The notes under the pieces were generated by a model. The model made no database searches. It saw nothing but the letters and a program-made list of their open reading frames with translations, and was not told where the DNA came from. The position numbers and the translations under genes were made by a program. This document shows positions 4,216-30,044 of a stretch of DNA of 64,000 nucleotides, in pieces (positions within the stretch are counted from its first letter, which is position 1; each line of letters opens with the position of its first letter). Source of the DNA: a virus; IMG/VR virus record IMGVR_UViG_3300049061_000067, positions 9-64,008 of that record. One strand, given 5' to 3'.

Positions 4216-4731
4216 TTACGCCGCCTTCTCCTCCGTCGCAAACCCACTAGCGCGAGTAAACTCAACCAGCCGTTGCTGAATACTCTTGACCAATCGCCGC
4301 TTGCTTTCTTCATTCAGCGAGATGATCGGACGTGTCTTCTGGTGAATTGGCGCGTAAGGTAGTGCTGAGCCAATTGCCAGTTCATCGCGTTCAGGGCGCA
4401 CAATGGAATCCAGTGCGTCAGGCCCGGTCATTGATTCGTATAGCGCATCCTCGCGTCGCAGTATGGTCTTGCCGGGAAACTCGCGCTCCTTGAATAGCTT
4501 GTACGCCGGACTCAGCGGCGTCCACTTGCCTGACGCGCCGCTTGCTCCCTCAGTGTGAAACTGCTGCGTCTCAATGTCATAAAAGGTAGCAATCACTCCC
4601 GGCCAAAAGTTGCGGAAGTCGCTGATTTCCTGATCCACGCGATTGAGGGCGCGGTCAAGCACCTCTACGCCCTGAATGCTGGCAGTGAAGCGAATCATGT
4701 AAACGCTGGTCCTGCCACTTTCGCCCGCCAC
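4216..4731 (-). CDS. Phage virion morphogenesis / tail completion protein (Mu G / P2 S-like)
   Basis: Motif ...GKWTPLSPAYKLFKEREFPGKTILRREDALYESMTG... resembles the conserved core of the Phage_tail_S family. Confidence 0.45.
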   Translation of the reverse strand: MAGESGRTSVYMIRFTASIQGVEVLDRALNRVDQEISDFRNFWPGVIATFYDIETQQFHTEGASGASGKWTPLSPAYKLFKEREFPGKTILRREDALYESMTGPDALDSIVRPERDELAIGSALPYAPIHQKTRPIISLNEESKRRLVKSIQQRLVEFTRASGFATEEKAA

Positions 4732-5591
4732 TTGCGTGCGACGGCTTTGACGCGTGGTGGAATGGCTTCACGTAATGGTTGACCTTCCAGACCTACCAGT
4801 TTAACCGATGCGGGGTCAGTTTCACGCCACAGGTTCAGCACCCACTCGATTACCGCTGCTTTGACGTCTGCCGGAGTCTCACACCAGCCCCAAATTGCCG
4901 AAATAGTGATCGGCACGCCTATCCACCAGCCCGGCCATGACGAGTAGTTGTAGAAATTGCTGAATGGAGCCAGCATGCCATTGCTGGACGTCAGCACCAG
5001 ATAGCCATCCTGCTCGGCAAAGGTGGGCACCGTGTAGCCCTCTGGCAATGTAAGCGCTGTGTCAAGTGAGCCTGCAACATACGGCGGCAAGTGTAAGTAG
5101 TTTGTGCCGTCGCTATAGAAGGTGCGTGTTGTAGCAATAGGTATCGGCGCGGGGTTAAAGTAACCTTCGGGCACTCCGCACTCAAGGTCAAACATGCGAC
5201 TGGCTTGCTCGATGAGTGCGTCCAACTCGGCAGGCGTAAATACTGTGACGGTTGCTGAGCCACCTGAGCCCGCTCCGCCCTGCGCTCGGCGTCGCACTTC
5301 AGTTGATGAGCAATAGGCAACGGAACGCTGAATACGAATCAGGATTGAGCGATTTTCCGTCTGCGTGTTGCTGGCGTCATCAACCGCGACAATCGTGTTG
5401 ACTAACTCATAAACTTCGCCCCACGTTCCGCCACTCAGCTTTACCTGCGTCGCGGTATCCGTGAACGCATCCGCTACAATGGTGATTCCCGCTGGACCGA
5501 CCCACGAAGACGATTGAATGGTGAGACCACCTAACCAGTCGACCCAGCCGATTTCAAAATCAAGTGTTTCAGTCGGTTCTTTAGTGAACAC
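4695..5591 (-). CDS. Head-tail connector (gp6-like C-terminal half) with an extra N-terminal domain
   Basis: C-terminal half (FTPAELDALIEQASRMFDLECG...IEWVLNLWRE) resembles gp6-type head-tail connectors. About 100 extra N-terminal residues. Confidence 0.4.
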   Translation of the reverse strand: MFTKEPTETLDFEIGWVDWLGGLTIQSSSWVGPAGITIVADAFTDTATQVKLSGGTWGEVYELVNTIVAVDDASNTQTENRSILIRIQRSVAYCSSTEVRRRAQGGAGSGGSATVTVFTPAELDALIEQASRMFDLECGVPEGYFNPAPIPIATTRTFYSDGTNYLHLPPYVAGSLDTALTLPEGYTVPTFAEQDGYLVLTSSNGMLAPFSNFYNYSSWPGWWIGVPITISAIWGWCETPADVKAAVIEWVLNLWRETDPASVKLVGLEGQPLREAIPPRVKAVARKWRAKVAGPAFT

Positions 5592-7211
5592 TTAGAGAAC
5601 CTCCGATTGAATTTCAGAGTCTATTTCTCTGATACGTATTTCGCTACCAGCTTTTGACCTACGCGATTCGGCGCCTATGACCAATGTTTGCCTCGGTGTA
5701 AAAGTGGCTGTCTGAATTATAGTACCAGAAGTTGCTATCACTACAGTGCAATTCGTTAGAGATAAGCGTTCGTGTGGCGGTGCTAAAGCCAGACCAGACA
5801 ATTCAATAGATCCCTCGGCAATGAATAAACCGCCCGCTTCGGAGATTGAAAGGAAGTCACTGGATGAAGCGATATCGCAACCCGCGCTCAGCGATGCTGC
5901 TCGTAGCAGTTCTTGATGTCCAGCCGAGTCAATGCTGGTGGTAACGGAGACAGTGATCGACATTTCAACCGTAGTAAAGAAGACGGCTGAAACCGCAATA
6001 CCAGAAGTCGAATCAATTCCCGTAGCGCGTTCAAGAATAGCCAGTCCGCCAGAGGCAATCTCGCCTGTTGTAGTAATAGACGCCGAACGCTCGATATCCC
6101 CTGCGCCTGCCTGAACTTGACCGGCACTTTCGATCACCGCATTGATGCTAGTCGTTGATGTACTTTGTATGATTGAGAAGAAGATTCCGACTGCCCCGAT
6201 ACTCCCGATGACCTCTGTGAGGGACCCACGTTCAAGAACAGATACGAATTCGCTTGATACAGTGAGATCACTGACTCCGTCAATAAGTACGCTTGCTGTA
6301 AATAAAGAGAACGACTCACCAGCCGCAGCAATGGTCATATTAGCGGTAATCCCCGCAGCCCCATTGAGCACGGAGAAAAAGGTTGACGTGCCAGTAATGC
6401 CGACAGACGCATTAAATTCCGCTGATCTTTGGAGTGCCCGCTGGCCCGAAGTTGATACAACGCCAGCACCGTCTACCAACGCCGTTCTCTCGAACACGGA
6501 AAGGAATGTAGCCGCAGAAGCGATTGCTCCCGCCCCGCCGATCAATGCTGACCCGGCAAGTAGGGCACTCCCATCCAACTCCATTGCGTGAGAGCAAAAG
6601 ACAGTGCTTGAAGCTGCGCCAAAAGTGATTGTCGTTCCGGTGAATCCTGAAGCCCGAGAAGCGGACTCCAATGCCACCGTGTCGTTAGATTGGCTGGTAT
6701 CTAAAACCTCCGTCCAGTTCGTCGGTGCGGTCGTTGTGGTGTCGGCGCTGCCTTGGACAACGAGTGTACCGTTACCAGTAAGGGCTGATTGATTAAGAGC
6801 GGGAGCCGCAGTGGCTGCTGCTTGGTTATTTTGGGAGCCCTTGCTGCGAACCGCATTAGCACCTGTTCTGCTAATTCCAGTGATCGGAATCACGTGAATC
6901 GTGCCGCTGCTGTTACTGCCTGTTGCAACGGTTATGACTGTCGATGTTGTATTAACCATCAACGCAGTTCGGATAAACACCGACATGCGATAGTTCACCG
7001 ACGAGATGGTGAAGTTCATCACATCAATGAGATCGTAAGTTCCGCTACCGTTGTTATCTGAACAAGTTGGGGTATCGTTGGTATTCGCCGCGACGCAGCA
7101 ATAGACAACCACTAAGTCACCCACTGCGGGGGTGAAAGTAGCCGTGCGGTTTCCAGTTCCCGAAGAAGCACCGCCCGACGCTACGCCTGCCGTACGAACC
7201 GCGAAGGCCAT
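5592..7211 (-). CDS. Large virion-associated repeat protein B (539 aa): N-terminal globular domain plus ~22-aa tandem repeats
   Basis: ORF track. Periodic F(F/L)SVxER...G...S repeats through the C-terminal two thirds. Paralogue of 7212-9362. Confidence 0.6.
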   Translation of the reverse strand: MAFAVRTAGVASGGASSGTGNRTATFTPAVGDLVVVYCCVAANTNDTPTCSDNNGSGTYDLIDVMNFTISSVNYRMSVFIRTALMVNTTSTVITVATGSNSSGTIHVIPITGISRTGANAVRSKGSQNNQAAATAAPALNQSALTGNGTLVVQGSADTTTTAPTNWTEVLDTSQSNDTVALESASRASGFTGTTITFGAASSTVFCSHAMELDGSALLAGSALIGGAGAIASAATFLSVFERTALVDGAGVVSTSGQRALQRSAEFNASVGITGTSTFFSVLNGAAGITANMTIAAAGESFSLFTASVLIDGVSDLTVSSEFVSVLERGSLTEVIGSIGAVGIFFSIIQSTSTTSINAVIESAGQVQAGAGDIERSASITTTGEIASGGLAILERATGIDSTSGIAVSAVFFTTVEMSITVSVTTSIDSAGHQELLRAASLSAGCDIASSSDFLSISEAGGLFIAEGSIELSGLALAPPHERLSLTNCTVVIATSGTIIQTATFTPRQTLVIGAESRRSKAGSEIRIREIDSEIQSEVL

Positions 7212-9362
7212 CTAAAGCGTTCTGTTCTCCTTTCCAATGGGTTGAACACGATATTCCGCATTAACTGTTGCGCGTCGCGTTGGGTGAAAGCCAACTGTCG
7301 GAACACCACCTGAACTCGTTATGGTCGCCGTGCAGTTGAATGACACCAGCCGGATATTATCCCTTTGCCCAATAGTTGAGACATCAGATTGCGCGGCAAC
7401 GGTTCCTGCGCCTTCAAGAACTGAGAAGAATGACGATGAGGCGGAAATGGCCCCGCTTGTAACAACCAATACAGCCCGTTCATGGGTTGCGCTCCCTGGC
7501 TGAATTTCGCCAGTACTTGTGATCAACGCAGAGACGTTAAAATCAGCAATGGATTGAACTTGTGAAAAGAATATGGACGAGGTGTCGATCCTGCCCGCGC
7601 AATCAAGCACCACCGAACGCTCAAATACGGAAAAGAACTGCGTGGAAACGCCTACACTAGCTGTAGCATCGATCTGAACCGTAGATTCAGAAACGGAAAA
7701 GAACAGGGCCGATGACTCAATCTCGGCTGTCGCGTTGATCAATGCAGTAGATTGAAGAATTGAGAAAAACGAAGCCGCGCTCTCTACGCTTCCGGCAACG
7801 CCTAAATCTGAGGTTCGCTCCAGTACCGAGAAGGAGAGCGCGGAGGTCCCAATTACACCTGAACAATCAACCGACGCCGACCGCTCAAATGTTGCTGCGG
7901 GGCTTGAAATGGTTCCCGCAGTCGTGATGCTACCGATGGCCGAGAGAACAGTAGCGCGGGAGAGTTGTCGCACGCCTGAAGCCGTGATGGCTGCGACCGT
8001 ATCAAACGAACCAGCTAGGTTGAAGACCGAAAAGAAAACCGCAGAAGCCGTGACCGCGCCAATCCCGTCGAGTAACACTGATCGGGCATGCTCGGTAACA
8101 CTCGAGAGCCCGATAATTTCCACTAAACCCACCGCGGTGGGGCTTGCTGTCGATAGAGTAAACGAGGCTGAAGCCGTAGAGCCGGCAGCATTAAAGACCT
8201 GATCGGCGCTGGAAATACCTAATCCGTCTATACGCTCAATCCAGCCTGACGCTACGGTAAATGTGGGAACCGCATCCGCAATACAGGTTGCCTGAAAGAT
8301 ACATTTCGTAGCAGTGCGCGTGAGCGCGTCCCATGTGCTGGTGGTTGAGGACGCATTCTGGCGTACGTTAACCGCGCCGATTGGACTTGTCTGATTGCAG
8401 TTGTAGTAAGTGCAAAGTTGTACGGAGATTTCGCCTGAGCCTGTACGGTTGAACCGCACATCTAACGACCCATCATAGACCGCCATGTACTTCCTGATCG
8501 TTGTAGCTCCGCCCGAGGTCGTAGTGGACCACGTGGCTATTTCAACCCAATCTGCCGGTGTGTTCGGGCTAGGTGCGGTACCCGCCGCTTCTACCGTGGC
8601 GATTACCAGATCTTTATTGCCATTCACGTCAGTGGCGGTTGTTCCCGCTGGCAAGGTTGGGGTGACGCTAGTTCCGGTCGCTGTGGCCTGTGAGGCTGAG
8701 CGGTAGTATGGATAATCGGCTGATGGCACTGCGATGATTCCGGCAAACCACCTAACGCCACTTGTAGGCGAAGCGTCTTGATTGCTGAGCGTGGTGTTCT
8801 GATCGGCAATTACACGCTCTGCCAAGTTTCCTGCCAACGTTCCACTGATTACCACTTCTTCGTCTTGAACGTAACCGGATGGGTCAGGCGCACTTGTTGC
8901 AGAGCGGCTAAAGTAGAAATGCAGTACATGCATTTCAGGCGCTAATGTAGTAATAGTCGACGGTCGGACGGGGTTGGCCGTACCGGTAGTGAAAGCATTA
9001 GCTGACCACGCAGGAAGGGAGAATACACCCTCTTCGCTGGCACCATCTTCGGACCAAGCAAAAGCAATCCTGCTTACAGTCGCACCAAGTGTGAAGGTAG
9101 GATTAGCAAGAGGAAGAGTGTCGGTTGAGAGTACGCGGCGATAGAAAAGCGAGCCGACAACACCATTAGCTGCCGTACCGACTATGTTCTGCGTTCGCCG
9201 GGACCAGCCAGCAGGGTTGCCTAACCATGCGACGTTACCAGTGTTCCCAATGGCAATCTTAATGATGTCGCCTGCGGCGTGTGTGGGTAAGGTGACAGCA
9301 ATAGTTGTTCCAGTGCCGCCGGGGTTAGAGGGTGTTGAGTCTCGAATCGTTGCGTTAGACAC
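7212..9362 (-). CDS. Large virion-associated repeat protein A (716 aa): N-terminal ~430-aa domain plus ~22-aa FFSVxER tandem repeats
   Basis: ORF track. Repeats FFSVLERTSDLGVAGSVESAAS / FFSILQSTALINATAEIESSAL / FFSVSESTVQIDATASVGVSTQ and so on. Confidence 0.6.
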   Translation of the reverse strand: MSNATIRDSTPSNPGGTGTTIAVTLPTHAAGDIIKIAIGNTGNVAWLGNPAGWSRRTQNIVGTAANGVVGSLFYRRVLSTDTLPLANPTFTLGATVSRIAFAWSEDGASEEGVFSLPAWSANAFTTGTANPVRPSTITTLAPEMHVLHFYFSRSATSAPDPSGYVQDEEVVISGTLAGNLAERVIADQNTTLSNQDASPTSGVRWFAGIIAVPSADYPYYRSASQATATGTSVTPTLPAGTTATDVNGNKDLVIATVEAAGTAPSPNTPADWVEIATWSTTTSGGATTIRKYMAVYDGSLDVRFNRTGSGEISVQLCTYYNCNQTSPIGAVNVRQNASSTTSTWDALTRTATKCIFQATCIADAVPTFTVASGWIERIDGLGISSADQVFNAAGSTASASFTLSTASPTAVGLVEIIGLSSVTEHARSVLLDGIGAVTASAVFFSVFNLAGSFDTVAAITASGVRQLSRATVLSAIGSITTAGTISSPAATFERSASVDCSGVIGTSALSFSVLERTSDLGVAGSVESAASFFSILQSTALINATAEIESSALFFSVSESTVQIDATASVGVSTQFFSVFERSVVLDCAGRIDTSSIFFSQVQSIADFNVSALITSTGEIQPGSATHERAVLVVTSGAISASSSFFSVLEGAGTVAAQSDVSTIGQRDNIRLVSFNCTATITSSGGVPTVGFHPTRRATVNAEYRVQPIGKENRTL

Positions 9363-9368
9363 ATGCGT

Positions 9369-9734
9369 TTAGTCGCCAAGTCGCCCAACAATAGAGAAGA
9401 GCTGTCCGTCGAAGACCGTGACTCGCACAGTGATGAAGCGTGCTGTCGGGACTACTGCCTGAGCATAAATCGCGTCTCCCTGCGTGAACTGCAATTGCGG
9501 TATTTCCCCTTCATTGTTATGGGTAAAAATCCTGGTTTCCATAAAAGGGTCGCCTGTCAGTCCCTCGCTGGCCTGTCTGATAAAGACACTATAAAAACTT
9601 TCATCAGTCGATAACTCCAGTTGAGCTTCGTATTCTCCACCAGTACGCAACTGAAACGGAAAGAAGGTGTGCAAGTTGTTGGTGAGGGTTCCGCCAAAAG
9701 GAAAGACGGCATATGCTGCTGTACCGTAACTCAT
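9369..9734 (-). CDS. Hypothetical structural protein
   Basis: ORF track. Sits in the structural operon. Confidence 0.4.
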   Translation of the reverse strand: MSYGTAAYAVFPFGGTLTNNLHTFFPFQLRTGGEYEAQLELSTDESFYSVFIRQASEGLTGDPFMETRIFTHNNEGEIPQLQFTQGDAIYAQAVVPTARFITVRVTVFDGQLFSIVGRLGD

Positions 9735-10372
9735 CCCGCGCTCCTCTTCACGATTCCAGTGATCGAATCATAATAAAGCGCATTTGCAATAGACGGGTCG
9801 GCATTTGGTATGTTATCCAGCACCACTTGCCCCGCTAAGTGGACTTGCCCAGTGCTGTCATCAGCCCGGACCGCCACGCCAGTGTTATTACCATCCAAGT
9901 CGCCGATCCCAGCCACGTTGCTATCAAGTCTCAGTAATAATCCGCCTGATAACTGCACCATAACGGCGAACATTTGCAGGACATCATCGACACTGAGGGT
10001 GAAATCACTTGCTGCTACAAAGTACTCAGTGCCAACCTTGGATACGTCAAGTAAATGGTTGTTAACCAGATCCGCGGTTAGACCAGCGACGATCTGGTAA
10101 GTCTTTCCGTCAATATGATGATCTACGGCTGCTGTGCCTTCCTGACCCCGTTCAATGGTATCGAATGTATCATCAGTAATCGCGGTGACGCGGATAACCT
10201 CGACATCAGGATCGTCCGAGGGATCTGGGAAATCAGTGGAGTTCCAGATCGTTGCGTTAAAAGGAGGGGATGGGAATCGCGCGCCATTATTGGCGCTGAG
10301 ATCCAAAGAGGTATCGGTGTCAAGAATGCCTACTGCCAGTGTTCCTTTAGCAAAGTTCTTAGCTAAATCCAT
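9731..10372 (-). CDS. Hypothetical structural protein (213 aa)
   Basis: ORF track. Start overlaps the stop of the upstream ORF by 4 nt. Confidence 0.45.
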   Translation of the reverse strand: MDLAKNFAKGTLAVGILDTDTSLDLSANNGARFPSPPFNATIWNSTDFPDPSDDPDVEVIRVTAITDDTFDTIERGQEGTAAVDHHIDGKTYQIVAGLTADLVNNHLLDVSKVGTEYFVAASDFTLSVDDVLQMFAVMVQLSGGLLLRLDSNVAGIGDLDGNNTGVAVRADDSTGQVHLAGQVVLDNIPNADPSIANALYYDSITGIVKRSAG

Positions 10373-10381
10373 TTATTACTC

Positions 10382-10828
10382 CTAGTCTGCGGCAGATACA
10401 CTGAGCGAAAGAAAACCAATCTCGTGATTGCCGCTCATGTTGACGCTTCCGCCCGCTTCTGTGCAGGTATCAAGCTCGCTAGCAGCAAACAGTGCTGCCC
10501 TAGAGGTCTGCCCGGTGAGTGACAGGCTTCGTAGATGCGCGGCTAAACTTCCCGGAGAAAGACGTGGTGGCAGGTTGGTCTTGTTTAAGTGCCATGAGCT
10601 TTCAGATCGTTTCATACCCATAACAATTGAAAGATAGTTATCAGTTCCCACGCGGCTCCCGCTCATATTGATGGCACACTGGTCCTGATTACCCGCTTCC
10701 AGTTCGGCCACAACAAATGCAACTGCTCTCTGCCGCTGTTCGTTATCAGAAGCATTACTCAGCGGTTTGAGACGGCTTAACTCATCGATCATAGTCTCGC
10801 GATCACTTTGTTTGATAATTGACCACAC
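10382..10828 (-). CDS. Hypothetical structural protein (148 aa)
   Basis: ORF track. Confidence 0.4.
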   Translation of the reverse strand: MWSIIKQSDRETMIDELSRLKPLSNASDNEQRQRAVAFVVAELEAGNQDQCAINMSGSRVGTDNYLSIVMGMKRSESSWHLNKTNLPPRLSPGSLAAHLRSLSLTGQTSRAALFAASELDTCTEAGGSVNMSGNHEIGFLSLSVSAAD

Positions 10829-10851: not shown

Positions 10852-11229
10852 TTATGTAAACGTCAGATCGAGATCACCAGTCGGAATCCGAAATGTATCC
10901 CCCGCTGTTACTGGTGCCGATGAAGAAAGATCGTCACGCCCAAGGAAGTTTCCGCCAGATGAGGCATCCCACAAACTGATCCATGTGTAAGTCTCAGTTG
11001 TGCTGACATTCAGCCACTCCAAAGCAGCGGTATTCGCGATGGCCCTGCTGGCGGCGCCCGCCCCAAAGGTACCTTGCTGGCGGGTTGTTTCTGTTGCCGC
11101 ATTCGATGTACCCGCCGATCCCGGATCACCCAAATGAAGTTTTGCGAATAACCCAGCCTCACTATAGGCAACCGCGCGCGCAACCGCATCAAGAAAACTG
11201 TTGGCTACCAGATCGCTCCATGTTCCCAT
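10852..11229 (-). CDS. Hypothetical structural protein (125 aa)
   Basis: ORF track. Confidence 0.4.
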   Translation of the reverse strand: MGTWSDLVANSFLDAVARAVAYSEAGLFAKLHLGDPGSAGTSNAATETTRQQGTFGAGAASRAIANTAALEWLNVSTTETYTWISLWDASSGGNFLGRDDLSSSAPVTAGDTFRIPTGDLDLTFT

Positions 11230-11242
11230 TGATTAAACTCCT

Positions 11243-12553
11243 TTACGCAGCTTTCGTGCGGCCTCGTTTCTTGTTTTCATCTGGTGCGGCAATCATCTTG
11301 TTCTCAGATGGGGCTTCAATTGCCTTGGTCTCACTGTCAGCCCCAATCCATCCGTGTTGCAGTGCTACGGCCGCGGGGATTGATGTGCCCCTACCCGCAT
11401 ACAATGTTACTGCGTCGCTTGGTATGCGCTGATCATTCGTCGCCTTAAAGTTCCCGTCCCGCAATTTCCAGATCCACTTGTCGCAGGTCCACACCTTCAT
11501 ATTGAAATCCTTCCCTCGATAGCGCTCGACTGTTTCAGTAAACGCCTGCCCCAGTCGCTCAAACTCACGCTCCGGTTCAATGGACCGCGCCAGTTCAAGT
11601 ACAATCTGCGAGCGCTCGTGATAGTAGAAGTCGTCAGTTATCAGGCGCACAACTTCATTGAACCATGCTGCTACGTCGTTGCGGTTGATGAAGATACCTG
11701 CTGTGGGGCCAAATGCTTCCTGTAGTCCCAGCGTCGGATGCGCGACTGTTGGAATGCCCGCGCAAGCAGCTTCAATGCCTACACGCCCGTAGGACTCATA
11801 CTCTGACGGCATCAGCAGCACCTTAGTCTTGCGAAAGACATGGCGAATATCAGGTGTGTGTGCCATCCACTCAATGTTACCACTGGCAGGTATTGCGCCG
11901 CCTTTACGCAAGGCGTCAGGCGCAAGAATCATCTGCTCGCCATAGCCGCCCTCAACTGCAAGGAATTCCCTGTCAGGCATCAATCTCGCCAGCGCCTTGA
12001 ATGTTTCAACTCCTTTGCCCGGTGTCGGGTTTACTAGCGTGATCTTCGTGCCGCGCTCGCATTCATAGTGCTCGCGTTCAACCACAGGATGGACTACCAC
12101 TGACGGCGCAAGCCACTCGGCAGGCATGGTCAACCCATTGTACGAGCTTGGGCTTGCCGCCAGCCAGTGCGAGTTGTACACCGTCAACGCGTTCTTGTAT
12201 GGCACACGCGCATCCACGCGCCAGCACATCATCTGCGCGTCGTTGTGGACAAAGTGGACTAGGGGAATCTTGGTTGACATTGCCAGCATCATTGCCTGAT
12301 TGGTGAGATCAAGGTGCGTGACGAGTAAATCCGAACCCGCAACGTAATACTCCAGCCATGACTGCTGACCACGACGAGGCGGGCGAACTACGCTAATGCC
12401 GTCGATTTCGTAAGGGGCGGTCCTGCTGTTCGCGCAGATCACGCGCACCTGATGGCCGCGCTTGACCATTGCGCGCAGGGCTGCGTGCAACGTGGTTTCA
12501 GAACCGGCGCAGTGCTCAGGCGGGAAAAGGTGGATTAGGGCTGTTAGCTTCAT
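11243..12553 (-). CDS. GT4-family glycosyltransferase (retaining, GT-B fold)
   Basis: C-terminal EYESYGRVGIEAACAGIPTVA matches the GT4 E-x7-E/GxP motif. N-terminus MKLTALIHLFPPEHCAGSET matches the GT4 N-terminal pattern. Start chosen at the second Met; the ORF track start is 12592. Confidence 0.65.
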   Translation of the reverse strand: MKLTALIHLFPPEHCAGSETTLHAALRAMVKRGHQVRVICANSRTAPYEIDGISVVRPPRRGQQSWLEYYVAGSDLLVTHLDLTNQAMMLAMSTKIPLVHFVHNDAQMMCWRVDARVPYKNALTVYNSHWLAASPSSYNGLTMPAEWLAPSVVVHPVVEREHYECERGTKITLVNPTPGKGVETFKALARLMPDREFLAVEGGYGEQMILAPDALRKGGAIPASGNIEWMAHTPDIRHVFRKTKVLLMPSEYESYGRVGIEAACAGIPTVAHPTLGLQEAFGPTAGIFINRNDVAAWFNEVVRLITDDFYYHERSQIVLELARSIEPEREFERLGQAFTETVERYRGKDFNMKVWTCDKWIWKLRDGNFKATNDQRIPSDAVTLYAGRGTSIPAAVALQHGWIGADSETKAIEAPSENKMIAAPDENKKRGRTKAA

Positions 12554-12611
12554 TAGCAAGATGGCGGGCGGCTGGCCTTCCGAGGAAAGCAATTAACCGC
12601 CCCTTGCGCCG

Positions 12612-13946
12612 TTACGAATTCGTGCCCGCAAAAAGGTCTATTTTAACTACGGCGGGGGGTCTTAAAACCCCGAACGCCCATCGGCCTTCATACAGGATGT
12701 CAATAATGTTGCGCTCGAAGTGATCGCGGTTTGAGTCGGTGATGTACACCGTTGGATCTTGTCGGTCCCAGACCACCAACTGTTTCAGGTCGCCGGAGTA
12801 GCCGGTGCCTTGCGGAATGACTTCAGACTCGATTACGGGCAGGCCCCAGAGCATCTTTGTGCCCATCTGCATGGGACCGCCAAAGTAGAACTGGCCCTGA
12901 GCGCCACGCGCAAGGTCAATGGTTTCCCAGTCGTAGGGGTTGAGCAGAAAGCCGGTTGAGCGCGCGCGGCCCTGGACCATTGCGGCAGTGCGTGCTTTGC
13001 GGGTCGTTGTTAGCAAGCCGCCGGTAGTGTCCTCGCTGTCGGCAACAAACGGCTGCGGGGTCAGGTTTGGCGTGTTCTCAAGTCCTGTGAAATGGTTCGC
13101 GCCCCCGGGACCGGCAATGATCTCTTCTTCCAGTTCAAGGTCAATGTCTAGCCGCATAAAGTTCGTCATCATCGATTGCAGTTGCGGCGCGTCACTGAGG
13201 ATCGTGCGCGTGGCCTGCATAATGACGGCAATGGTCTTGACACCTGTTTGCACTACTTCCAGCGCCATGCTTGCCTTGGGCTTGAGTGCCAGATCGTCGG
13301 TTGCCGATGTCGCCTCTGGAACAATCTTCGCAGCACGTGTCAGGGAATTAACCCTCACGTACTCGATCAGGTTCGAGCCTGTTTGCAGGATGGTGATCAC
13401 ATCGCGAATTGAAGGCTGACGCAACGGCAGTTCAACAGGCCATGGGCCATAATCGCGGCGCACTAAGCCGCCGCCTGCGGTCACGGGTACCGACATTACC
13501 AGATCCTTGAACGACAGGTCGCCCAGACCAACATCTTTCAGCGCGATGGTAGGCGAGCGACCAAACCTGACCGACGCGTTCATCTCCTTGCCTTCGGGGG
13601 CAATTGACTCGCGCCACGTCTTGAACTCAGGCGCGTTGATAATCGCCTCGCCCATCGTCTTGATTTCAGGCTGCCCGTTGCCGTTGCCATTGCCGTTGCC
13701 AAAGTCAGGGCGGTCCACAGGCTGCGCGAGAAAGGTTTCAATTGCTTTCAGGCGTTTGCTGCGGTCGGCAAACTTGTTCTCTTCGTCAACCTTGGCGCTC
13801 AGTTCCTCAATCGACTTCCAGCGCGTGTCAAGCTCGGCTTGCTGCTCAGTAGTAGGCGTCTCTGCACCCTGCTTGTCCCAGAACGCTTTCTCGGCCTCTA
13901 CCAGCGCCTTAAGCTCCCGTGCTGCTGTTTTCTTCTCTTCCGGCAT
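12612..13946 (-). CDS. Major capsid protein, HK97 fold, with an N-terminal delta/scaffold-like coiled coil
   Basis: 444 aa. The N-terminal ~100 aa are coiled coil and end in a GNGNGNGNG linker, followed by a capsid-like domain. Lies directly downstream of the prohead protease gene with no separate scaffold gene. Confidence 0.65.
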   Translation of the reverse strand: MPEEKKTAARELKALVEAEKAFWDKQGAETPTTEQQAELDTRWKSIEELSAKVDEENKFADRSKRLKAIETFLAQPVDRPDFGNGNGNGNGQPEIKTMGEAIINAPEFKTWRESIAPEGKEMNASVRFGRSPTIALKDVGLGDLSFKDLVMSVPVTAGGGLVRRDYGPWPVELPLRQPSIRDVITILQTGSNLIEYVRVNSLTRAAKIVPEATSATDDLALKPKASMALEVVQTGVKTIAVIMQATRTILSDAPQLQSMMTNFMRLDIDLELEEEIIAGPGGANHFTGLENTPNLTPQPFVADSEDTTGGLLTTTRKARTAAMVQGRARSTGFLLNPYDWETIDLARGAQGQFYFGGPMQMGTKMLWGLPVIESEVIPQGTGYSGDLKQLVVWDRQDPTVYITDSNRDHFERNIIDILYEGRWAFGVLRPPAVVKIDLFAGTNS

Positions 13947-13971: not shown

Positions 13972-15132
13972 CTACGCCAGCGCTCGAATGGCGAGGCTTT
14001 GCATGCGTAGCGATTGAGTCCTTAGCGCAGCCACGTCGATTGACTTCTCTTTCGGCTTGGGTTCGGAAGCGGCAAGTAACTCGTCAAGTGCGTCTCTTGC
14101 CGCCAGCACCTTTTTCCGATTTGAAGCAGAGAGCATCCGGCCTTCCTTGACCCGGTTCTCATGGTTGCGCTGCATATTGCTGGTGTGCTTCGCCAATGCG
14201 GATACCACATCGTCAAAGGACTCAAAGGAGTCGGATACCGGCTGACCTTTGAGGTAAAACTCGTCGTCAGAACTGTTCAAAAACTCTTCAATCTGCGCCG
14301 TGACCAGCGGAATCATTGTCGGCGGGTACTCGTTAAAGGCTTCGGCTACCTTCGCCTTCCAGTCCATGACTACGCCGGTTACATCGGAGTCTTTAGCTGT
14401 CTCGGCAATCTTGCGAACTACGCGGCGCAATGCAGACTCAACCTCCCATGTAGAGGGAGTCGTTTGGGCCATCTCCTCAGCGAGCATGCCTTTTAGTTCA
14501 CCGTCGACAATTGACATCTTCACGCCAGTCGCCATAGCCAGCTTCTGCATAGGTGAAGTCACCAGTGAATCCTCAATCGTTTCGCCTTTAAGCAAGATTC
14601 GGATACGAGAGAACTCCTGAGCCTTTAACAGGTTCGCGGCAAGTCGCTCGGGTTTGACAAACTGTGGCAACTGCTCTTTGTAGTCCTTAGCCTCGATATA
14701 CTGTTTCTGCTTGACGGAGTAACCAAAGGAGAAGCCCATCGTCTTGCCTGCTTCCATACGCTCGCGAGCCTTAGTGCGAATGTTTTGGGAGTCTGGCGTG
14801 GAGTGGAATTGAGACTTTACAAAGAAGCCGTAGTCGTCTTCTTTGGCGTCGACGGGGAACCCTACCGCCTCGGAGAACGACCAATCATGTGAGTGCGCGG
14901 TGAACCCGCTTTGAAGGTAATCTGAGATTCCATCCGCAAAGAAGCCCTTGACAACAATGTCGCCGCCTTCGTCAATCTCGCCAAAGACGCTACGGTATCC
15001 CTCAATCGTTCCTGACCCTTCGTCAGAAACTTTTAATGCTTTCAAGTCGATGAATTTGCGCTCTATCGGCATAAGCAAAAAGCCCGTCGCGGCCTCCATT
15101 GCTGGAAACCACGGCGGGCAGGTCGTCATCAC
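13972..15132 (-). CDS. Prohead protease (HK97/U35-like) with a C-terminal coiled-coil extension
   Basis: N-terminal ~170 aa resemble a Caudovirus prohead protease. Position immediately upstream of the capsid gene. Confidence 0.6.
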   Translation of the reverse strand: MMTTCPPWFPAMEAATGFLLMPIERKFIDLKALKVSDEGSGTIEGYRSVFGEIDEGGDIVVKGFFADGISDYLQSGFTAHSHDWSFSEAVGFPVDAKEDDYGFFVKSQFHSTPDSQNIRTKARERMEAGKTMGFSFGYSVKQKQYIEAKDYKEQLPQFVKPERLAANLLKAQEFSRIRILLKGETIEDSLVTSPMQKLAMATGVKMSIVDGELKGMLAEEMAQTTPSTWEVESALRRVVRKIAETAKDSDVTGVVMDWKAKVAEAFNEYPPTMIPLVTAQIEEFLNSSDDEFYLKGQPVSDSFESFDDVVSALAKHTSNMQRNHENRVKEGRMLSASNRKKVLAARDALDELLAASEPKPKEKSIDVAALRTQSLRMQSLAIRALA

Positions 15133-26225: not shown

Positions 26226-27113
26226 CTATTGATTTATCCAAACGTGAAAGCACCTGCACCAGTCGCCCCCGGCGCACTCGGGATTTGGCGCAGGTTGTAG
26301 ATCGTCTTCGTTAGTCGCCGTCTTGCCATCTTCATCTGCGCATGGCTGACAAACGTTCTGGTCTAACAGCGCACTGTACTCCACGCGCTCCCACTCATCA
26401 CGGCGGTTTTCGGCTTCGTCGCTGCGACCAATGCTGATAACACGATTAGCCAGCCCTGTAGCCGCACGGTCGATATAGCCGACTGAGCCGGTAGCAATCT
26501 CGCTGGTGACAGCAGCAATCAGCGCTGCGCCTGTCAGACCCAACAGCGAGTGACGCGCGGCGGCGGCGATAATGCGTGATTGCACGTCGTTGGTAACGCG
26601 GCTGGTGGTGAGATCGGTGAGCAGGTCAAGCTCGTCAAAGTCGTCTGCGTCAGGCGCGTCAGCCTTCTGGCCCAACTCGGCAGCCACCAGCATGCGTCCC
26701 TGTCGATGCACCGCCACAAGCTGCTTGCTTAGGTCCGTGCGCATCGCGTCAGGCACCTGCAACACCAACTCGTGATAGTCAGCAGGCTTCACTTTCCTGA
26801 TGCGTTTCAACCCGTTCGTGACTAGCTCGCTGCGCAGGTCCAGCAGCACTTTGCCAATGGACTCTTTGGCTGACTCCTGTGCCTGAGCAACGCCCTTGAC
26901 GGCAATCTTCTCGTGCTCTTTAGGCTCACGGCTAAGCGTTAGACCGTCGTAGTCGAAGGACTTGCGCTCGAGGTGGTTCAAGCCAAGGTGAGTGTAGAAG
27001 GCGGTGGCTTTAGCTTCGCCGTGTGTGTCGATAGCCTGCTGCCAGCCATGTGCCAAGCGCAAGGCAGTTGCCGCTTCAAGTTTGAGTTGTAGTACTTTAG
27101 CTTGCAGGCTCAC
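26226..27113 (-). CDS. Head morphogenesis protein (Mu gpF / SPP1 gp7 family)
   Basis: Position downstream of the portal gene. ~295 aa with a conserved C-terminal Cys cluster (CQPCADEDG...CAGGDWCRC), typical of the family. Confidence 0.6.
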   Translation of the reverse strand: MSLQAKVLQLKLEAATALRLAHGWQQAIDTHGEAKATAFYTHLGLNHLERKSFDYDGLTLSREPKEHEKIAVKGVAQAQESAKESIGKVLLDLRSELVTNGLKRIRKVKPADYHELVLQVPDAMRTDLSKQLVAVHRQGRMLVAAELGQKADAPDADDFDELDLLTDLTTSRVTNDVQSRIIAAAARHSLLGLTGAALIAAVTSEIATGSVGYIDRAATGLANRVISIGRSDEAENRRDEWERVEYSALLDQNVCQPCADEDGKTATNEDDLQPAPNPECAGGDWCRCFHVWINQ

Positions 27114-28654
27114 GATTTCATAAACTCTCGCATCTGCTCTTCCATCGACTGCATCATTCGATCCACGTCAGCAAACTTTGCCAGCGAGGCAGGGTCAGTG
27201 GGCGTCACTGGTTTTGGCTCCTGTGAACCGTCACCCATTGCAATAACCTGCTCGGGGCTGGTAGGAGTGCTAAGCGATGGAATAATTCTGTACTCGCCAA
27301 GTGGTTTGCCTACCGGCTTAAGCCCGCATGCTGATAGCGCTTGGTCGTAGGTAATTAATCCGGCATTGAATTGCTGCACGGTACGCTTAACCACCGCATC
27401 CTTGTCCTCTTCCAACACGCGCACGTTGGACGTGTCAAACCAGAATTCAGCATCGTCAAGGTCGTCAAACTCAGGCTTCAATTGCCAGTTGATCTCCTCG
27501 GCCCAAGTGGTTTGCAGTGGGATGATTACTTCCTCGTAGCCTTGCTGGCGGGCCTGCTCACTGGAAGCGTAGCTGGTGCCGTTCTGCAAACCGACCAACA
27601 GGCCCAGCGTCGTAGCCGGGATCTGGAGGACCGCCGCCACACGTGATTCAGGGATTAAGCGCAGTGCTGACAGGTCCAACTCCTGCGGACTAAACCCCAC
27701 CTTCTCGAAGTCAATTGGCTCACTGAACACAACAGGCTCGCCAGCGTGATCGCCGGTGGTTTTGCGCAGCCAGCCTTCCTTCATGGCGGCAGCCTTAGTG
27801 GCGTCAACCCTGACTTCCTTGTCCTTGGGCGAGATCACCGGCACCTGAATGCCCATATTGCGCATGATGGCGGCAGTGAACTGGGCCATCTTATCGTCGC
27901 CGTAGAGTTCCTTAACAAGGGGCTCAAGCGGACTGCGCGTGCGCCGGTTTTCCATCAGTGGCCCACGTTTCAGGTGCAGCACGTCGGCGGCAGGCCATAG
28001 CTCAGGTGCCTTGCCGGGCACGTCAAACTGGTAGTGGCTGATGAAGGGGTCAAGGTTGGCTTCCTGGGGCACGGGAGGCGAACCATTGTCGCCGGGCCAG
28101 CGTGGACGTATCAGGTAGTGGGGAATGTGCCAGAGTTCGACTACCTGACTGGTCACACTGCGCACCTTTTTGAAGCGCACGCCACCGTCAACCCACCAGT
28201 CGACTGATGCAGCATGCGAGTAGTTGGCCCAGACGTGATGCTTGTTGGGGCGACGGATGAGTTGAGCGAGAGGATGCAGCGGGTCGATTGCAACGTCACC
28301 GGCTTTGTTGGTGCGGCGGATTACGGGCTGGGCTTCAGGCAGCCGCGTGCCGGTGTAGTTGAACACGCAGGCAACCAGCGAGTGGCCGTCGAGTGCGCCT
28401 ACTTCGCGGCGATAGTCAATAGCCGACGTTGGGCCTCGATGCCGAAAGCGATAGTCAATGAAGTTGTCGTACGTGGCGGCTGCGGATGAGAAGTCAGGTG
28501 GTGCGGTAGCAGCGGCTTTCTGCTCGCGAGGCAACAGTGCGCGATAGGCGGTTGTGACACGCTTGATTAGACTGAATTCAGCCATTGAGGCCTCACTTCT
28601 TTCTGTCCAGATGGCGGTCAAACCAATAATAGAAGGCAACCAGACTTCCGACAA
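27110..28654 (-). CDS. Portal protein
   Basis: 514 aa, immediately downstream of TerL. Composition is typical of a portal protein. Confidence 0.65.
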   Translation of the reverse strand: MSEVWLPSIIGLTAIWTERSEASMAEFSLIKRVTTAYRALLPREQKAAATAPPDFSSAAATYDNFIDYRFRHRGPTSAIDYRREVGALDGHSLVACVFNYTGTRLPEAQPVIRRTNKAGDVAIDPLHPLAQLIRRPNKHHVWANYSHAASVDWWVDGGVRFKKVRSVTSQVVELWHIPHYLIRPRWPGDNGSPPVPQEANLDPFISHYQFDVPGKAPELWPAADVLHLKRGPLMENRRTRSPLEPLVKELYGDDKMAQFTAAIMRNMGIQVPVISPKDKEVRVDATKAAAMKEGWLRKTTGDHAGEPVVFSEPIDFEKVGFSPQELDLSALRLIPESRVAAVLQIPATTLGLLVGLQNGTSYASSEQARQQGYEEVIIPLQTTWAEEINWQLKPEFDDLDDAEFWFDTSNVRVLEEDKDAVVKRTVQQFNAGLITYDQALSACGLKPVGKPLGEYRIIPSLSTPTSPEQVIAMGDGSQEPKPVTPTDPASLAKFADVDRMMQSMEEQMREFMKS

Positions 28655-28706: not shown

Positions 28707-30044
28707 TTAGTACATCTCCAGTTCACGTGATGCTTGCGCCAGTCCCAGTTCTGTCATGGCCCACACCATTGCATCCATGCGGTTTGGGCTGGCATCTCCC
28801 GGCGTCCACAGGCACATCTCGTCTTCCAGTTGCGCAAAGTTCCTGCCTACATGATGTGCGCGTCCATGCTCGTACACGCTGGCAATAGGTTCTGCTCGCG
28901 TTTGCTTGCCGCGCGAGGCGTGCACTAATTTAACACGAATGCTTGGGTCAACCGTAGAAATTGTCAGGGAAACCATTTCACCGCCATTGTTCGCTTCGGC
29001 AACAATGCAATTGGCTTGGTGGTGGTGATAAGCCTTGACTGCTGCTGTAGCCCAGGTCTTGGGCGAACCTTGCACGGAGTTGTCAGCAATAACGTAGCCA
29101 ATATTCGCCGTCTTGCCTGCGGTGATAATGCCTGCTTCGTCGCCGGTTGAACTGGCGCTTGGATCGATAGCAACCACAATGCGATCCAGGTCCGGCGCTT
29201 CGTCAACTCGCAGGGACTCGATCAACTCACGCTTCCACAGTGCTCCCGGCGCTTCGTCAACGTCTTCGGCCTCAATCTCCATGCGATAAGCCAGCGCCGT
29301 CATATCGTCGCTGATTTCACTAAGCGCTTCCTTGCTGAGATACGGGTTGTCGTGCGAGGTGAAGTGAAAAGCTGCGTAGCGCACGCTGGTTAACGCCTCA
29401 CGCTGATATTTCTTGAATAGCTTGCCTGCATGTTGCGGGTCATTGGCTTTGCTAACGGAGCGTGAATGCAAGCTCGGCGGCGTGTAGATGAACACTGCAT
29501 CACCGTCGTTATCAAGCAGCATTGGAGCGCCGACCAGACCCCATGCATCCTCATTCATCAACTGCCATTCGTCAAGGTACAAGTCGTCAGCATAGTCGCC
29601 GCGCAATGAGTCGGCGTTCCATGCGGTCTTAGCGCGAATGCGCTGCTCGGTGCCGGGAATCTCCAGCGTGTGGTAGGTTTCGTTTTTAACCACCTGACCC
29701 GCGTCGATGGCCGGTTGCAGTGCGCGCACCACCGTCACCCAATAGCGATGGATCTGTTCTTGTGTTGGTGCTGCGTAAAGCTGCCTGCGCCCTTTGAGGA
29801 AGCGCTTGACCGAGCGAATTGCAACGCCAACTGTCTTGCCGCCACGACGTCCGGCACGGACCACAATGCGCTTGGCGGTGGAGTCGACGAAGGCTTGTTG
29901 TTTAGGGTGATCGGCGGTAGCGGGAAGGTTGACAAGGAGTTCAGTTGATCGCTTTGCTCTCAGCACTCGGAGAAATATCGGCTTCTCTTCCGGCGTCAAG
30001 GTTTGCCATCTCTGCCTCAAATTGTCGGTCAAGTTCTGAGACAT
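28707..30044 (-). CDS. Terminase large subunit
   Basis: Walker A VRAGRRGGKT. ATPase plus C-terminal nuclease-like half. 445 aa. Confidence 0.8.
   Translation of the reverse strand: MSQNLTDNLRQRWQTLTPEEKPIFLRVLRAKRSTELLVNLPATADHPKQQAFVDSTAKRIVVRAGRRGGKTVGVAIRSVKRFLKGRRQLYAAPTQEQIHRYWVTVVRALQPAIDAGQVVKNETYHTLEIPGTEQRIRAKTAWNADSLRGDYADDLYLDEWQLMNEDAWGLVGAPMLLDNDGDAVFIYTPPSLHSRSVSKANDPQHAGKLFKKYQREALTSVRYAAFHFTSHDNPYLSKEALSEISDDMTALAYRMEIEAEDVDEAPGALWKRELIESLRVDEAPDLDRIVVAIDPSASSTGDEAGIITAGKTANIGYVIADNSVQGSPKTWATAAVKAYHHHQANCIVAEANNGGEMVSLTISTVDPSIRVKLVHASRGKQTRAEPIASVYEHGRAHHVGRNFAQLEDEMCLWTPGDASPNRMDAMVWAMTELGLAQASRELEMY

Follow-up and report, generated by a model that had tools for sequence, protein, structure and literature searches.

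Two adjoining, probable neck-fibre proteins of a phage carry a 22-residue FFSVxER repeat that may thread gp80-like beads

The window analysed here is a 64,000-nucleotide stretch of a virus record (IMG/VR IMGVR_UViG_3300049061_000067, positions 9 to 64,008), and its interval 5592-9362 holds the two adjoining open reading frames, of 716 and 539 aa, that an initial annotation had described there. Both lie on the minus strand, flanked by capsid genes on one side and neck genes on the other, which agrees with the unusual position first assigned to them. The genes for these proteins, A and B, abut: the ATG of B directly follows the TAG of A, and an AAGGAG 14 nt upstream of that ATG supports the start codon of B. 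The features of the two proteins are as follows.

7212-9362, minus strand: protein A (716 aa), open reading frame with a GTG start; two-jelly-roll head, then about 12 FFSVxER repeats, then a C-terminal tail (AF2 model)
8106-9362, minus strand: head of A (aa 1-419), a pair of beta-sandwich (jelly-roll) domains in tandem; presumed distal adhesin
7308-8105, minus strand: repeat region of A (aa 420-685), roughly 12 copies of the 22-aa unit (tiling and repeat HMM)
7215-7307, minus strand: A C-terminal tail (aa 686-716), FHPTRRATVNAEYRVQPIGKENRTL, with two xExR mini-repeats; presumed collar anchor
5592-7211, minus strand: protein B (539 aa), open reading frame with an ATG start; one jelly-roll head, then about 13 repeats, then a C-terminal tail
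6573-7211, minus strand: B head (aa 1-213), a single jelly-roll domain; remote homologue of the second domain of A
5724-6572, minus strand: repeat region of B (aa 214-496), roughly 13 copies of the 22-aa unit; contains indels (tiling and repeat HMM)
5595-5723, minus strand: B C-terminal tail, FTPRQTLVIGAESRRSKAGSEIRIREIDSEIQSEVL, with three xExR-type mini-repeats

The repeat has the 22-residue consensus xFFSVFERsaaLDatGsIessG. Its location had been read correctly from the start; against the more than 12 copies then given for each protein, our counts are about 12 for A and about 13 for B, and roughly half of the units in the two proteins are well preserved. The lag-22 autocorrelation of A lies 8 SD above that of shuffled sequences (z = 8.0); the ungapped lag-22 signal of B is weak (z = 1.2) because of its indels, the 22-residue periodicity is clear in homologues of B, and the two repeat regions align with each other (BLASTP E = 2e-21). 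Among 116 distinct units, drawn from diverged homologues, F2, F3 and S4 are conserved at 100%, 87% and 86%, respectively. Both faces of the FFSVF strand are hydrophobic, as would befit a strand that is buried in a partner. A and B are the sole periodic proteins in the window.

Since the region is rich in Ser, Ala, Thr and Gly, and the ungapped periodicity of B is not significant, it might be argued that composition or chance alone produces the repeat in a Ser/Ala/Thr-rich sequence, or that the open reading frames are not genes. We regard this as extremely improbable, and indeed as refuted by four observations: the periodicity of A, the 86-100% conservation of the FFS motif, the existence in many contigs of relatives that are conserved over their full length at 50-64% identity, and a head model with a pLDDT of 94.5.

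The repetition is present at the protein level only and is absent from the DNA. The 66-nt DNA repeats that the initial annotation proposed are not seen: TRF finds none, identity between the units averages 44% and peaks at 58%, and the longest exact direct repeat is the 12 nt that encode FFSV. The associated idea of recombination hotspots fails with them, there being no DNA repeats able to serve as such. On the other hand, the impression that the repeat belongs to no described family was borne out in Pfam, PHROGs and the PDB. Neither A nor B has a match in Pfam or PHROGs at E up to 0.1, and PDB sequence searches with both returned chance-level matches only; across these three resources the repeats match no curated tail-fibre repeat model, and no known beta-helix family signature was found in Pfam or PHROGs, nor any meaningful match to one among PDB sequences. 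A match of B to LppM (E 0.006, below the cut-off) was dismissed as noise. Neither the region nor A found a counterpart in the INPHARED phage collection by DNA or tblastn search, and in a library of 1.84 billion proteins, which carries no names and no annotation, the repeat region matches only 52 cluster representatives.

AF2 models the head of A with a pLDDT >90, and the head may resemble TNF/C1q-like knobs such as the Tuc2009 RBP head and the PRD1 P5 knob. The related N-terminal domain that had been ascribed to both proteins survives in part: BLASTP detects no similarity between the N-terminal domains of A and B, but in a profile comparison the B domain (aa 31-173) matches the second domain of A (aa 250-381; hhalign E = 3e-6, probability 88%), which amounts to a remote and partial relation. 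The B head domain is kept in 44 proteins with varied C-termini.

The neighbouring genes provide the context in which these proteins may be understood.

10852-11229, minus strand: gp80-like protein of the bead/whisker type, 125 aa; matches PF23140 at E 2.7e-25 (above the cut-off) and chain a of PDB 8jou at E 4e-6
9731-10372, minus strand: 213-aa fibre protein (phrog_8469), N-terminus like the N-terminal domain of the GP4 tail fibres gp75 and gp76 (BLASTP E 4e-5 and 3e-4)
9369-9734, minus strand: 121-aa open reading frame that always precedes the A-type gene (synteny in loci L001, L003 and L020-L022)
4695-5591, minus strand: 298-aa protein; gp77-like Ig collar domain, followed through a Gly-rich linker by a C-terminal domain that is a presumed head-tail adaptor
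4216-4731: Neck1/tail-completion gene (phrog_26)

The gp77-like Ig domain (aa 1-91, nt 5319-5591) matches PF23148 (E 9e-16, aa 4-85) and, by profile, 8jou_D (E 1.7e-4). The domain begins at residue 1-4 of its protein, which thus has no built-in rope like that of the Bas63 collar; the C-terminal domain is presumed to be the adaptor from its position just upstream of the Neck1/tail-completion gene. The gp80-like protein has 1441 homologues, the best 120 of which are all at least 72% identical to it, and genes of this type are infrequent, found in about 1.4% of phage records. All FFSV-type loci with enough flanking sequence (the window, L001, L002, L012-14, L016, L018, L038, L040 and L042, a set that is partly phylogenetically dependent) have a gp80 gene only a few genes away, and four distinct gene orders are represented.

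The gp80-like gene and the gp77-like collar domain lend strong contextual backing to the earlier suggestion of neck or whisker-type fibres, and we place A and B among the fibres of the neck or collar, whichever fold (rope or shaft) applies to their repeats. They could alternatively be capsid decoration or head fibres, anchored to the capsid surface instead of the neck collar: their genes directly follow that for the major capsid protein, PHROGs names the gp80 family 'head protein', and the up-facing whiskers of Bas63 touch the capsid. We consider this improbable. The PHROGs name is an annotation, not a test, and in mycobacteriophages the family is found among minor tail genes; furthermore, the sole solved homologues attach to a gp77-type collar, and here the gp77 domain is encoded immediately downstream of A and B and is accompanied across loci by the conserved motif of their tails.

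That tail motif, (I/V)(S/G)xExR, is common to proteins with FFSV repeats, with a different type of 22-residue repeat (HxH) and with Ser/Pro linkers. The B tail, for example, nearly equals the tail of a protein from locus L027 (FSPRQMLSIGSEQR), in which it sits after HxH repeats. Head, rope and tail swap independently among these relatives; the architecture is modular. Common ancestry of the FFSV and HxH repeats, suspected from their shared period and hydrophobic spacing, was dropped when hhalign of triple units showed no similarity, and a PDB sequence search with an HxH-repeat protein gave chance-level matches only. The Ser/Pro-linker relatives have no gp80-like open reading frame within 10 kb, and in the HxH-repeat relatives a different, 122-aa open reading frame occupies the syntenic place of gp80. 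The latter is weakly gp80-like (hhalign probability 20%), and its membership of the family could not be shown.

A bead-and-rope fibre architecture is already known from two phages, GP4 and Bas63. According to papers that cite Zheng et al. 2023 (J Mol Biol 435:168258), Fiber I of the Ralstonia podophage GP4 (PDB 8JOU) consists of gp80 dimers on a 'rope' protein, for which gp77, an Ig-like fiber-tail adaptor, provides the anchor; the 8jou entry contains 10 gp80 chains. GP4 gp79, encoded beside gp80, has 10-11 repeats of about 20 aa and is presumably this rope, an assignment that finds no confirmation in the accessible literature or the PDB (a PDB sequence search with gp79 gave no match above chance). 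Our module shares with GP4 both the gp80-like and the gp77-like partner, each with significant Pfam and PDB matches, as well as the gp75/76-type fibre N-terminus; moreover, the repeats of gp79 are followed by an SRTLVVSS-type stretch, which is the repeats-plus-tail layout of A and B. The differences are several: GP4 is a podophage, whereas the virion here appears long-tailed (Neck1 gene, tape-measure-sized open reading frame); the collar domain is free in GP4 but here is fused to the presumed adaptor; the repeat chain here bears an N-terminal head of 210-420 aa; there are two paralogous chains; and the period is 22 aa rather than the 20 of gp79, with no sequence similarity. Our repeat HMM scores GP4 gp79, the Bas63 collar gp4 and the HxH protein of locus L003 no better than shuffles. 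The tail-motif HMM gives gp79 1.6 bits, a score reached by 2 of 1000 shuffles, but spurious open reading frames score higher, and we take it as no more than a weak hint.

In the Escherichia phage Bas63 (Felixounavirus), the collar carries at its N-terminus an extension that whisker dimers wrap 'like beads on a string' (PMC12609058; PDB 9MT4), and this rope completes the incomplete sandwich of each whisker monomer (PMC12609058). The collar protein gp4 (9mt4_G) has 166 aa; by our own estimate, which takes off about 90 aa for an Ig domain and is not a published figure, the rope would comprise about 75 aa for 4 monomers, or about 19 aa each. The gene module here matches Bas63 in polarity (rope N-terminal to the collar attachment) and in neck location, and a similar threading may apply. 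However, the Bas63 rope is a short extension of the collar protein without a distal domain, whereas the presumed rope here forms a protein of its own, 12-13 units long and topped by an adhesin-like head. On informal inspection, the Bas63 rope and the repeats of gp79 did not look alike to us.

A third system, the 'extra structural module' of Alishewanella phage LSH1 (gp34-gp36), comprises an adhesin, a gp80-like dimer and an Ig-fold protein (PMC13243795). AlphaFold models the C-terminal region of this adhesin as a poor-quality beta-helix, a region that its authors left unexplained and for which they proposed no rope (PMC13243795). From the published description, the combination of an adhesin with a poor beta-helix, a gp80-like protein and an Ig protein is as we find it here, except that the LSH1 adhesin is a lyase-like beta-helix and ours a jelly roll.

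We hypothesize that A and B are adhesin-rope fusions in which one repeat binds one bead, a proposal whose chances we judge to be evenly balanced. Each protein would be attached at the phage neck with its jelly-roll head facing outward, where it probably binds the host surface. The run of repeats would be an extended chain that does not fold by itself; each gp80-like subunit would receive, in its open beta-sandwich, the FFSVF strand of one 22-residue unit, so that about six gp80-like dimers would be strung along each A or B chain, and repeat number would set the length of the fibre. The xExR tail probably docks on the gp77-like Ig collar domain. Several lines of evidence argue for the rope: the module contains both of its defining partners and the gp75/76-like fibre N-terminus; A and B are the only periodic candidates beside a gp77 domain that lacks a rope of its own; FFSV repeats, wherever the flanking sequence suffices, lie near genes of so infrequent a family as gp80; relatives in which the repeat gives way to Ser/Pro linkers have no gp80-like open reading frame within 10 kb, and those with HxH units have an unlike open reading frame in its place; F2, F3 and S4 are highly conserved in a strand that is hydrophobic on both faces; and the monomer model of the repeats has low confidence, much as LSH1 has its poor beta-helix. 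Other evidence points away from it: the repeat profile has no sequence similarity to gp79, the Bas63 rope or the HxH repeats; the 122-aa open reading frame of the HxH relatives is weakly gp80-like; the adaptor role of the gp77-fusion protein derives from position alone; and gp79 is the GP4 rope by presumption.

The fold of the repeats bears directly on this question. The AF2 monomer of the A repeats has three short strands per unit at a pLDDT of 50-80, in contrast to the >90 of the head. The beta-solenoid that the initial annotation anticipated is reproduced by AlphaFold, but with low confidence, and the comparative evidence favours an extended rope covered by gp80-like beads. It is nonetheless possible, if on balance doubtful, that the repeats self-fold into a shaft, either as a monomeric right-handed beta-helix (one 22-residue coil per repeat) or as a trimeric intertwined structure with a phenylalanine core, which would hold the head off the neck while the gp80-like protein occupied another rope. 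Parallel beta-helices typically show a 22-residue period, and the HxH 22-aa repeats of the relatives recall metal-binding trimeric shafts of the T4 gp37 type; both points count for a shaft. TNF/C1q-like knobs are usually trimeric, which would favour its trimeric form, and a 975-aa protein of locus L027 carries repeats of this general kind between two globular domains, a more shaft-like arrangement that shows that the repeats can be internal to larger proteins. Against a shaft stand the low model confidence, the absence of any other rope candidate in the module, the tight adjacency of gp80 in four gene orders, and the Ser/Pro-linker relatives, from which the spacer need not be a rigid shaft; a monomeric helix, furthermore, would leave the Phe/Val ladder of FFSVF exposed to solvent. 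Compared with the shafts of tailspikes and secreted adhesins, which are right-handed parallel beta-helices, our repeats differ in four respects: their model confidence is low, they lack a Pfam beta-helix signature, their FFSVF strand is hydrophobic on both faces, and they are obligately adjacent to gp80-like genes.

The rope reading draws further support from other phages, since the genes adjacent to gp80 in seven other lineages encode 4-11 tandem units of about 20 aa. Examples are as follows.

Snenia gp22 and Godines gp33, gene beside the gp80-like gene: about 8 units of about 20 aa
Atu_ph08, unannotated open reading frame beside the gp80-like gene: 4-5 units of about 20 aa
Ochrobactrum phage OH, gene beside the gp80-like gene: 6 units of about 20 aa
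Sporosarcina phage Lietuvens, gene beside the gp80-like gene: about 5 units of about 20 aa

We tentatively suggest, at somewhat short of even chances, that repeats of about 20-22 residues beside gp80-family genes constitute a general 'rope code' of tailed phages, with one repeat per bead subunit and repeat number dictating fibre length. The rope would be fused to the collar (Bas63), free (GP4) or fused to an interchangeable adhesin head, A and B being the first recognised adhesin-rope fusions: two kinds of beaded fibres, of about six dimers each, on a collar, presumably 12-fold, that forms part of the presumed adaptor in a long-tailed phage. Such a code, if true, would also account for the poor beta-helices that AlphaFold 'hallucinates' for parts of these modules, and many 'hypothetical' or 'minor tail' proteins encoded beside gp80-family genes (in mycobacteriophages, GP4-like podophages and the LSH1 module) would gain a structural role. 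Neck accessory fibres are poorly understood, yet they affect adsorption and host range. The modular swapping of head, rope and tail suggests a natural scaffold by which binding domains could be displayed at fixed distances from the virion. Should the repeats be ropes, their count would predict both fibre length and bead stoichiometry; and this count does vary, as had been anticipated, from about 9 to about 30 units between relatives.

The window comprises the whole genome of a tailed phage, a 64,008-bp JGI contig encoding an identical protein, and the genes that bear on the two FFSVxER-repeat proteins, here called A and B, are as follows.

Genes of the window (coordinates, strand, product)
28707-30044, minus, large terminase
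27110-28654, minus, portal
13972-15132, minus, protease
12612-13946, minus, major capsid protein
11243-12592, minus, GT4 glycosyltransferase (phrog_26352, phrog_2170)
10852-11229, minus, gp80-like protein, 125 aa (PF23140; PDB 8jou chain a)
10382-10828, minus, 148-aa ORF
9731-10372, minus, 213-aa ORF, N-terminus like GP4 gp75/gp76
9369-9734, minus, 121-aa ORF
7212-9362, minus, A, 716 aa
5592-7211, minus, B, 539 aa
4695-5591, minus, 298-aa protein, PF23148 domain in its first 91 residues
4216-4731, minus, Neck1/tail-completion protein

The genes of A, B and the 298-aa protein abut one another, the TAG of A being followed by the ATG of B without a gap. The public JGI gene call gives B 510 aa, with a start 29 codons downstream of the ATG at 7211; we consider the 539-aa form likelier, since that ATG has a good Shine-Dalgarno sequence (AAGGAG, 14 nt upstream) and abuts the stop codon of A.

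The initial annotation's claim of a 22-aa repeat in two adjacent proteins was confirmed: 22-residue tiling and a repeat HMM place ~12 units at aa 420-685 of A and ~13 at aa 214-496 of B, the lag-22 autocorrelation in A lies 8 SD over shuffles, and the repeat regions of B and A align with E = 2e-21. The ungapped periodicity signal of B is weak because of indels; periodicity is clear in B homologues. The consensus, drawn from 116 distinct units pooled across homologues, is x-F(100%)-F(87%)-S(86%)-[VI]-[FL]-E-R-s-a-a-[LVI]-D-a-t-[AG]-s-[IV]-e-s-s-[GA]. This unit is previously undescribed, and among 1.84 billion proteins its family numbers just 52 cluster representatives. Repeats had also been proposed in the DNA itself, as recombination hotspots; TRF returned no DNA-level tandem repeats in the region, the DNA units have a mean identity of 44%, and no exact direct repeat is longer than 12 nt. 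With DNA-level repetition virtually absent, the hotspot idea fails for this genome; the anticipated copy-number difference between relatives is real (~9 to ~30 units).

We consider it very probable that A and B are fibre proteins attached to the collar or neck, in a system of the type described for the Ralstonia podophage GP4 and the Escherichia phage Bas63. The earlier suggestion of neck fibres or whiskers is well supported by gene context. The 125-aa protein can be assigned with confidence to PF23140 (‘GP4 fiber I protein gp80’, the bead or whisker family) and matches PDB 8jou chain a; residues 1-91 of the 298-aa protein form the PF23148 gp77 ‘fiber-tail adaptor’ domain; and the 213-aa protein opens with ~85 residues similar to the N-terminal domain found in the GP4 tail fibres gp75 and gp76, an indication that the same collar carries a third fibre of a different kind. 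In GP4, the adaptor is ringed by 15 Ig-like gp77 subunits that hold three fibre sets (PMC11445570), and Fiber I is a ‘rope’ protein bearing five gp80 dimers. In the myophage Bas63, an N-terminal extension of the collar protein (deposited as gp4) is wrapped by whisker dimers, ‘like beads on a string’, and this rope fills out each whisker monomer’s incomplete sandwich (PMC12609058); we estimate the extension at ~75 aa, carrying 4 monomers. The window phage differs from both in the proposed fusion of an adhesin to a rope made of undescribed 22-aa units, in its two paralogues, and in a collar fused to what is presumed, from its position, to be the adaptor; unlike GP4, it appears to be long-tailed.

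Beads and collar are encoded in the window, yet the gp77-like collar domain has no N-terminal extension, so a separate rope is needed. A and B, the sole periodic proteins in this genome, would supply it, and we give an even chance to their repeats being ropes for the gp80-like beads. Both faces of the FFSVF strand are hydrophobic, which we take to fit burial in a partner groove and to fit poorly the solvent-exposed face of a helix. An autonomous, self-folding shaft is in our view a somewhat doubtful alternative; the beta-helix that AF2 predicts for the repeats, at low confidence, speaks for it. The beta-solenoid of the initial annotation is possible, and less favoured than a rope. The paper on the Alishewanella phage LSH1 independently describes a module of an adhesin, a gp80-like dimer and an Ig protein, in which the adhesin runs into a ‘poor-quality beta-helix’ left unexplained there. 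As a point against the rope, the FFSV repeats showed no sequence similarity to gp79, to the Bas63 rope or to the HxH repeats described below.

Tandem units of ~20 aa occur in the gene adjoining the gp80-family gene in each of the seven comparison phages listed here.

Repeat units, or monomers bound, in comparison phages
GP4 gp79, 10-11 units (8jou contains 10 gp80 chains)
Mycobacteriophage Snenia gp22 (L010 5739-6956), ~8 tandem 20-aa units
Mycobacteriophage Godines gp33 (L011 5745-6950), ~8 tandem 20-aa units
Agrobacterium phage Atu_ph08 (L034, MF403009), ~6414-6923, plus, unannotated ORF, 4-5 units of 20 aa, PNRVMTVQPVRALVV tail
Ochrobactrum phage OH, 180-aa ORF, 6 units
Sporosarcina phage Lietuvens, N-terminus of a DUF2313 protein, ~5 units
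Bas63 (solved), collar N-terminal extension, 4 monomers bound

On this pattern gp79 is a candidate for the GP4 rope. The Atu_ph08 ORF lies between gp80-like and gp77-like genes, where GenBank has an antisense ORF instead (locus 6392-6703), probably a mis-annotation. Every FFSV-type locus with enough flank has gp80 a few genes away at most, in four gene orders; gp80-like genes occur in only ~1.4% of phage records. In Snenia gp22 and Godines gp33, both annotated as ‘minor tail proteins’, the repeats precede a Gly-rich domain, and the gene immediately downstream encodes the gp80-like ‘head protein’. Given this placement of the gp80 family among distal tail genes, its PHROG name misleads. A 260-aa protein of Caudoviricetes sp. 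MW202476 (L037 6001-6783), annotated ‘b-glycanase’, begins with a gp80-like domain and may be a naturally occurring fusion between the bead domain and a further one.

The supposed relationship of the N-terminal domains needed correcting: what holds is a remote homology between the single head of B and the second domain of A (hhalign E 3e-6). The head shows some resemblance to TNF-like knobs, which are usually trimeric; this would suit a self-folding shaft, as would the occurrence of repeats between two globular domains. After the repeats come the C-terminal tails of A (...FHPTRRATVNAEYRVQPIGKENRTL) and B (...FTPRQTLVIGAESRRSKAGSEIRIREIDSEIQSEVL), with 2-3 (I/V)(S/G)xExR-type mini-repeats apiece. 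The A head is present in >100 metagenomic proteins: alone (~440 aa), or followed by FFSV repeats, by an unrelated 22-aa HxH repeat (QVHxLxVxxAxHxHxA), or by extended SPSASP linkers together with further domains. All these architectures end in one of two tail types, F-x-P-R-Q...E-x-R or P-S-R-T-F-V-V-E-S, and in many loci a gp77 gene, fused or free, is directly next. FFSV-type repeats also follow other, unrelated ~220-aa heads. Across relatives, head, repeat and tail are three independent modules. A ~100-130-aa ORF always lies upstream of the A-type gene; the motif EGE(I/V)PQxQ of the 121-aa ORF recurs in a 97-aa ORF of L003 and at the C-terminus of a 975-aa protein of L027, and the 121-aa product may be a partner or a chaperone.

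The HxH repeat, likewise undescribed, takes the place of the FFSV repeat in up to ~20 copies (L003 12381-14240; L022 13794-15329; L024 5505-8255; L026; L027; L030 10001 onward), behind an A-type or LamG-like head, and had no match in Pfam, PHROG or PDB. Its motifs are reminiscent of metal-binding fibre shafts, and this resemblance to metal-stapled trimeric shafts is a further point for self-folding. At the syntenic position of gp80, these loci have a conserved, different 122-aa ORF that is only weakly gp80-like. In other relatives (L020 9989-14215; L021 2602-6672; L023; L025), A/B-head homologues continue into several hundred residues of SPSASP-type, Ser/Pro low-complexity linker that replaces the repeats, and a similar short C-terminal tail is kept; no gp80-like ORF was found within 10 kb.

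The GT4 gene lies within the structural module, flanked by the major capsid gene and the gp80-like gene, and is kept at an equivalent place in L001 and L027. Together with repeats rich in Ser/Thr and with the SPSASP linkers of relatives, its placement hints that capsid or fibres may be glycosylated. In L039, three GT2 genes follow a repeat protein.
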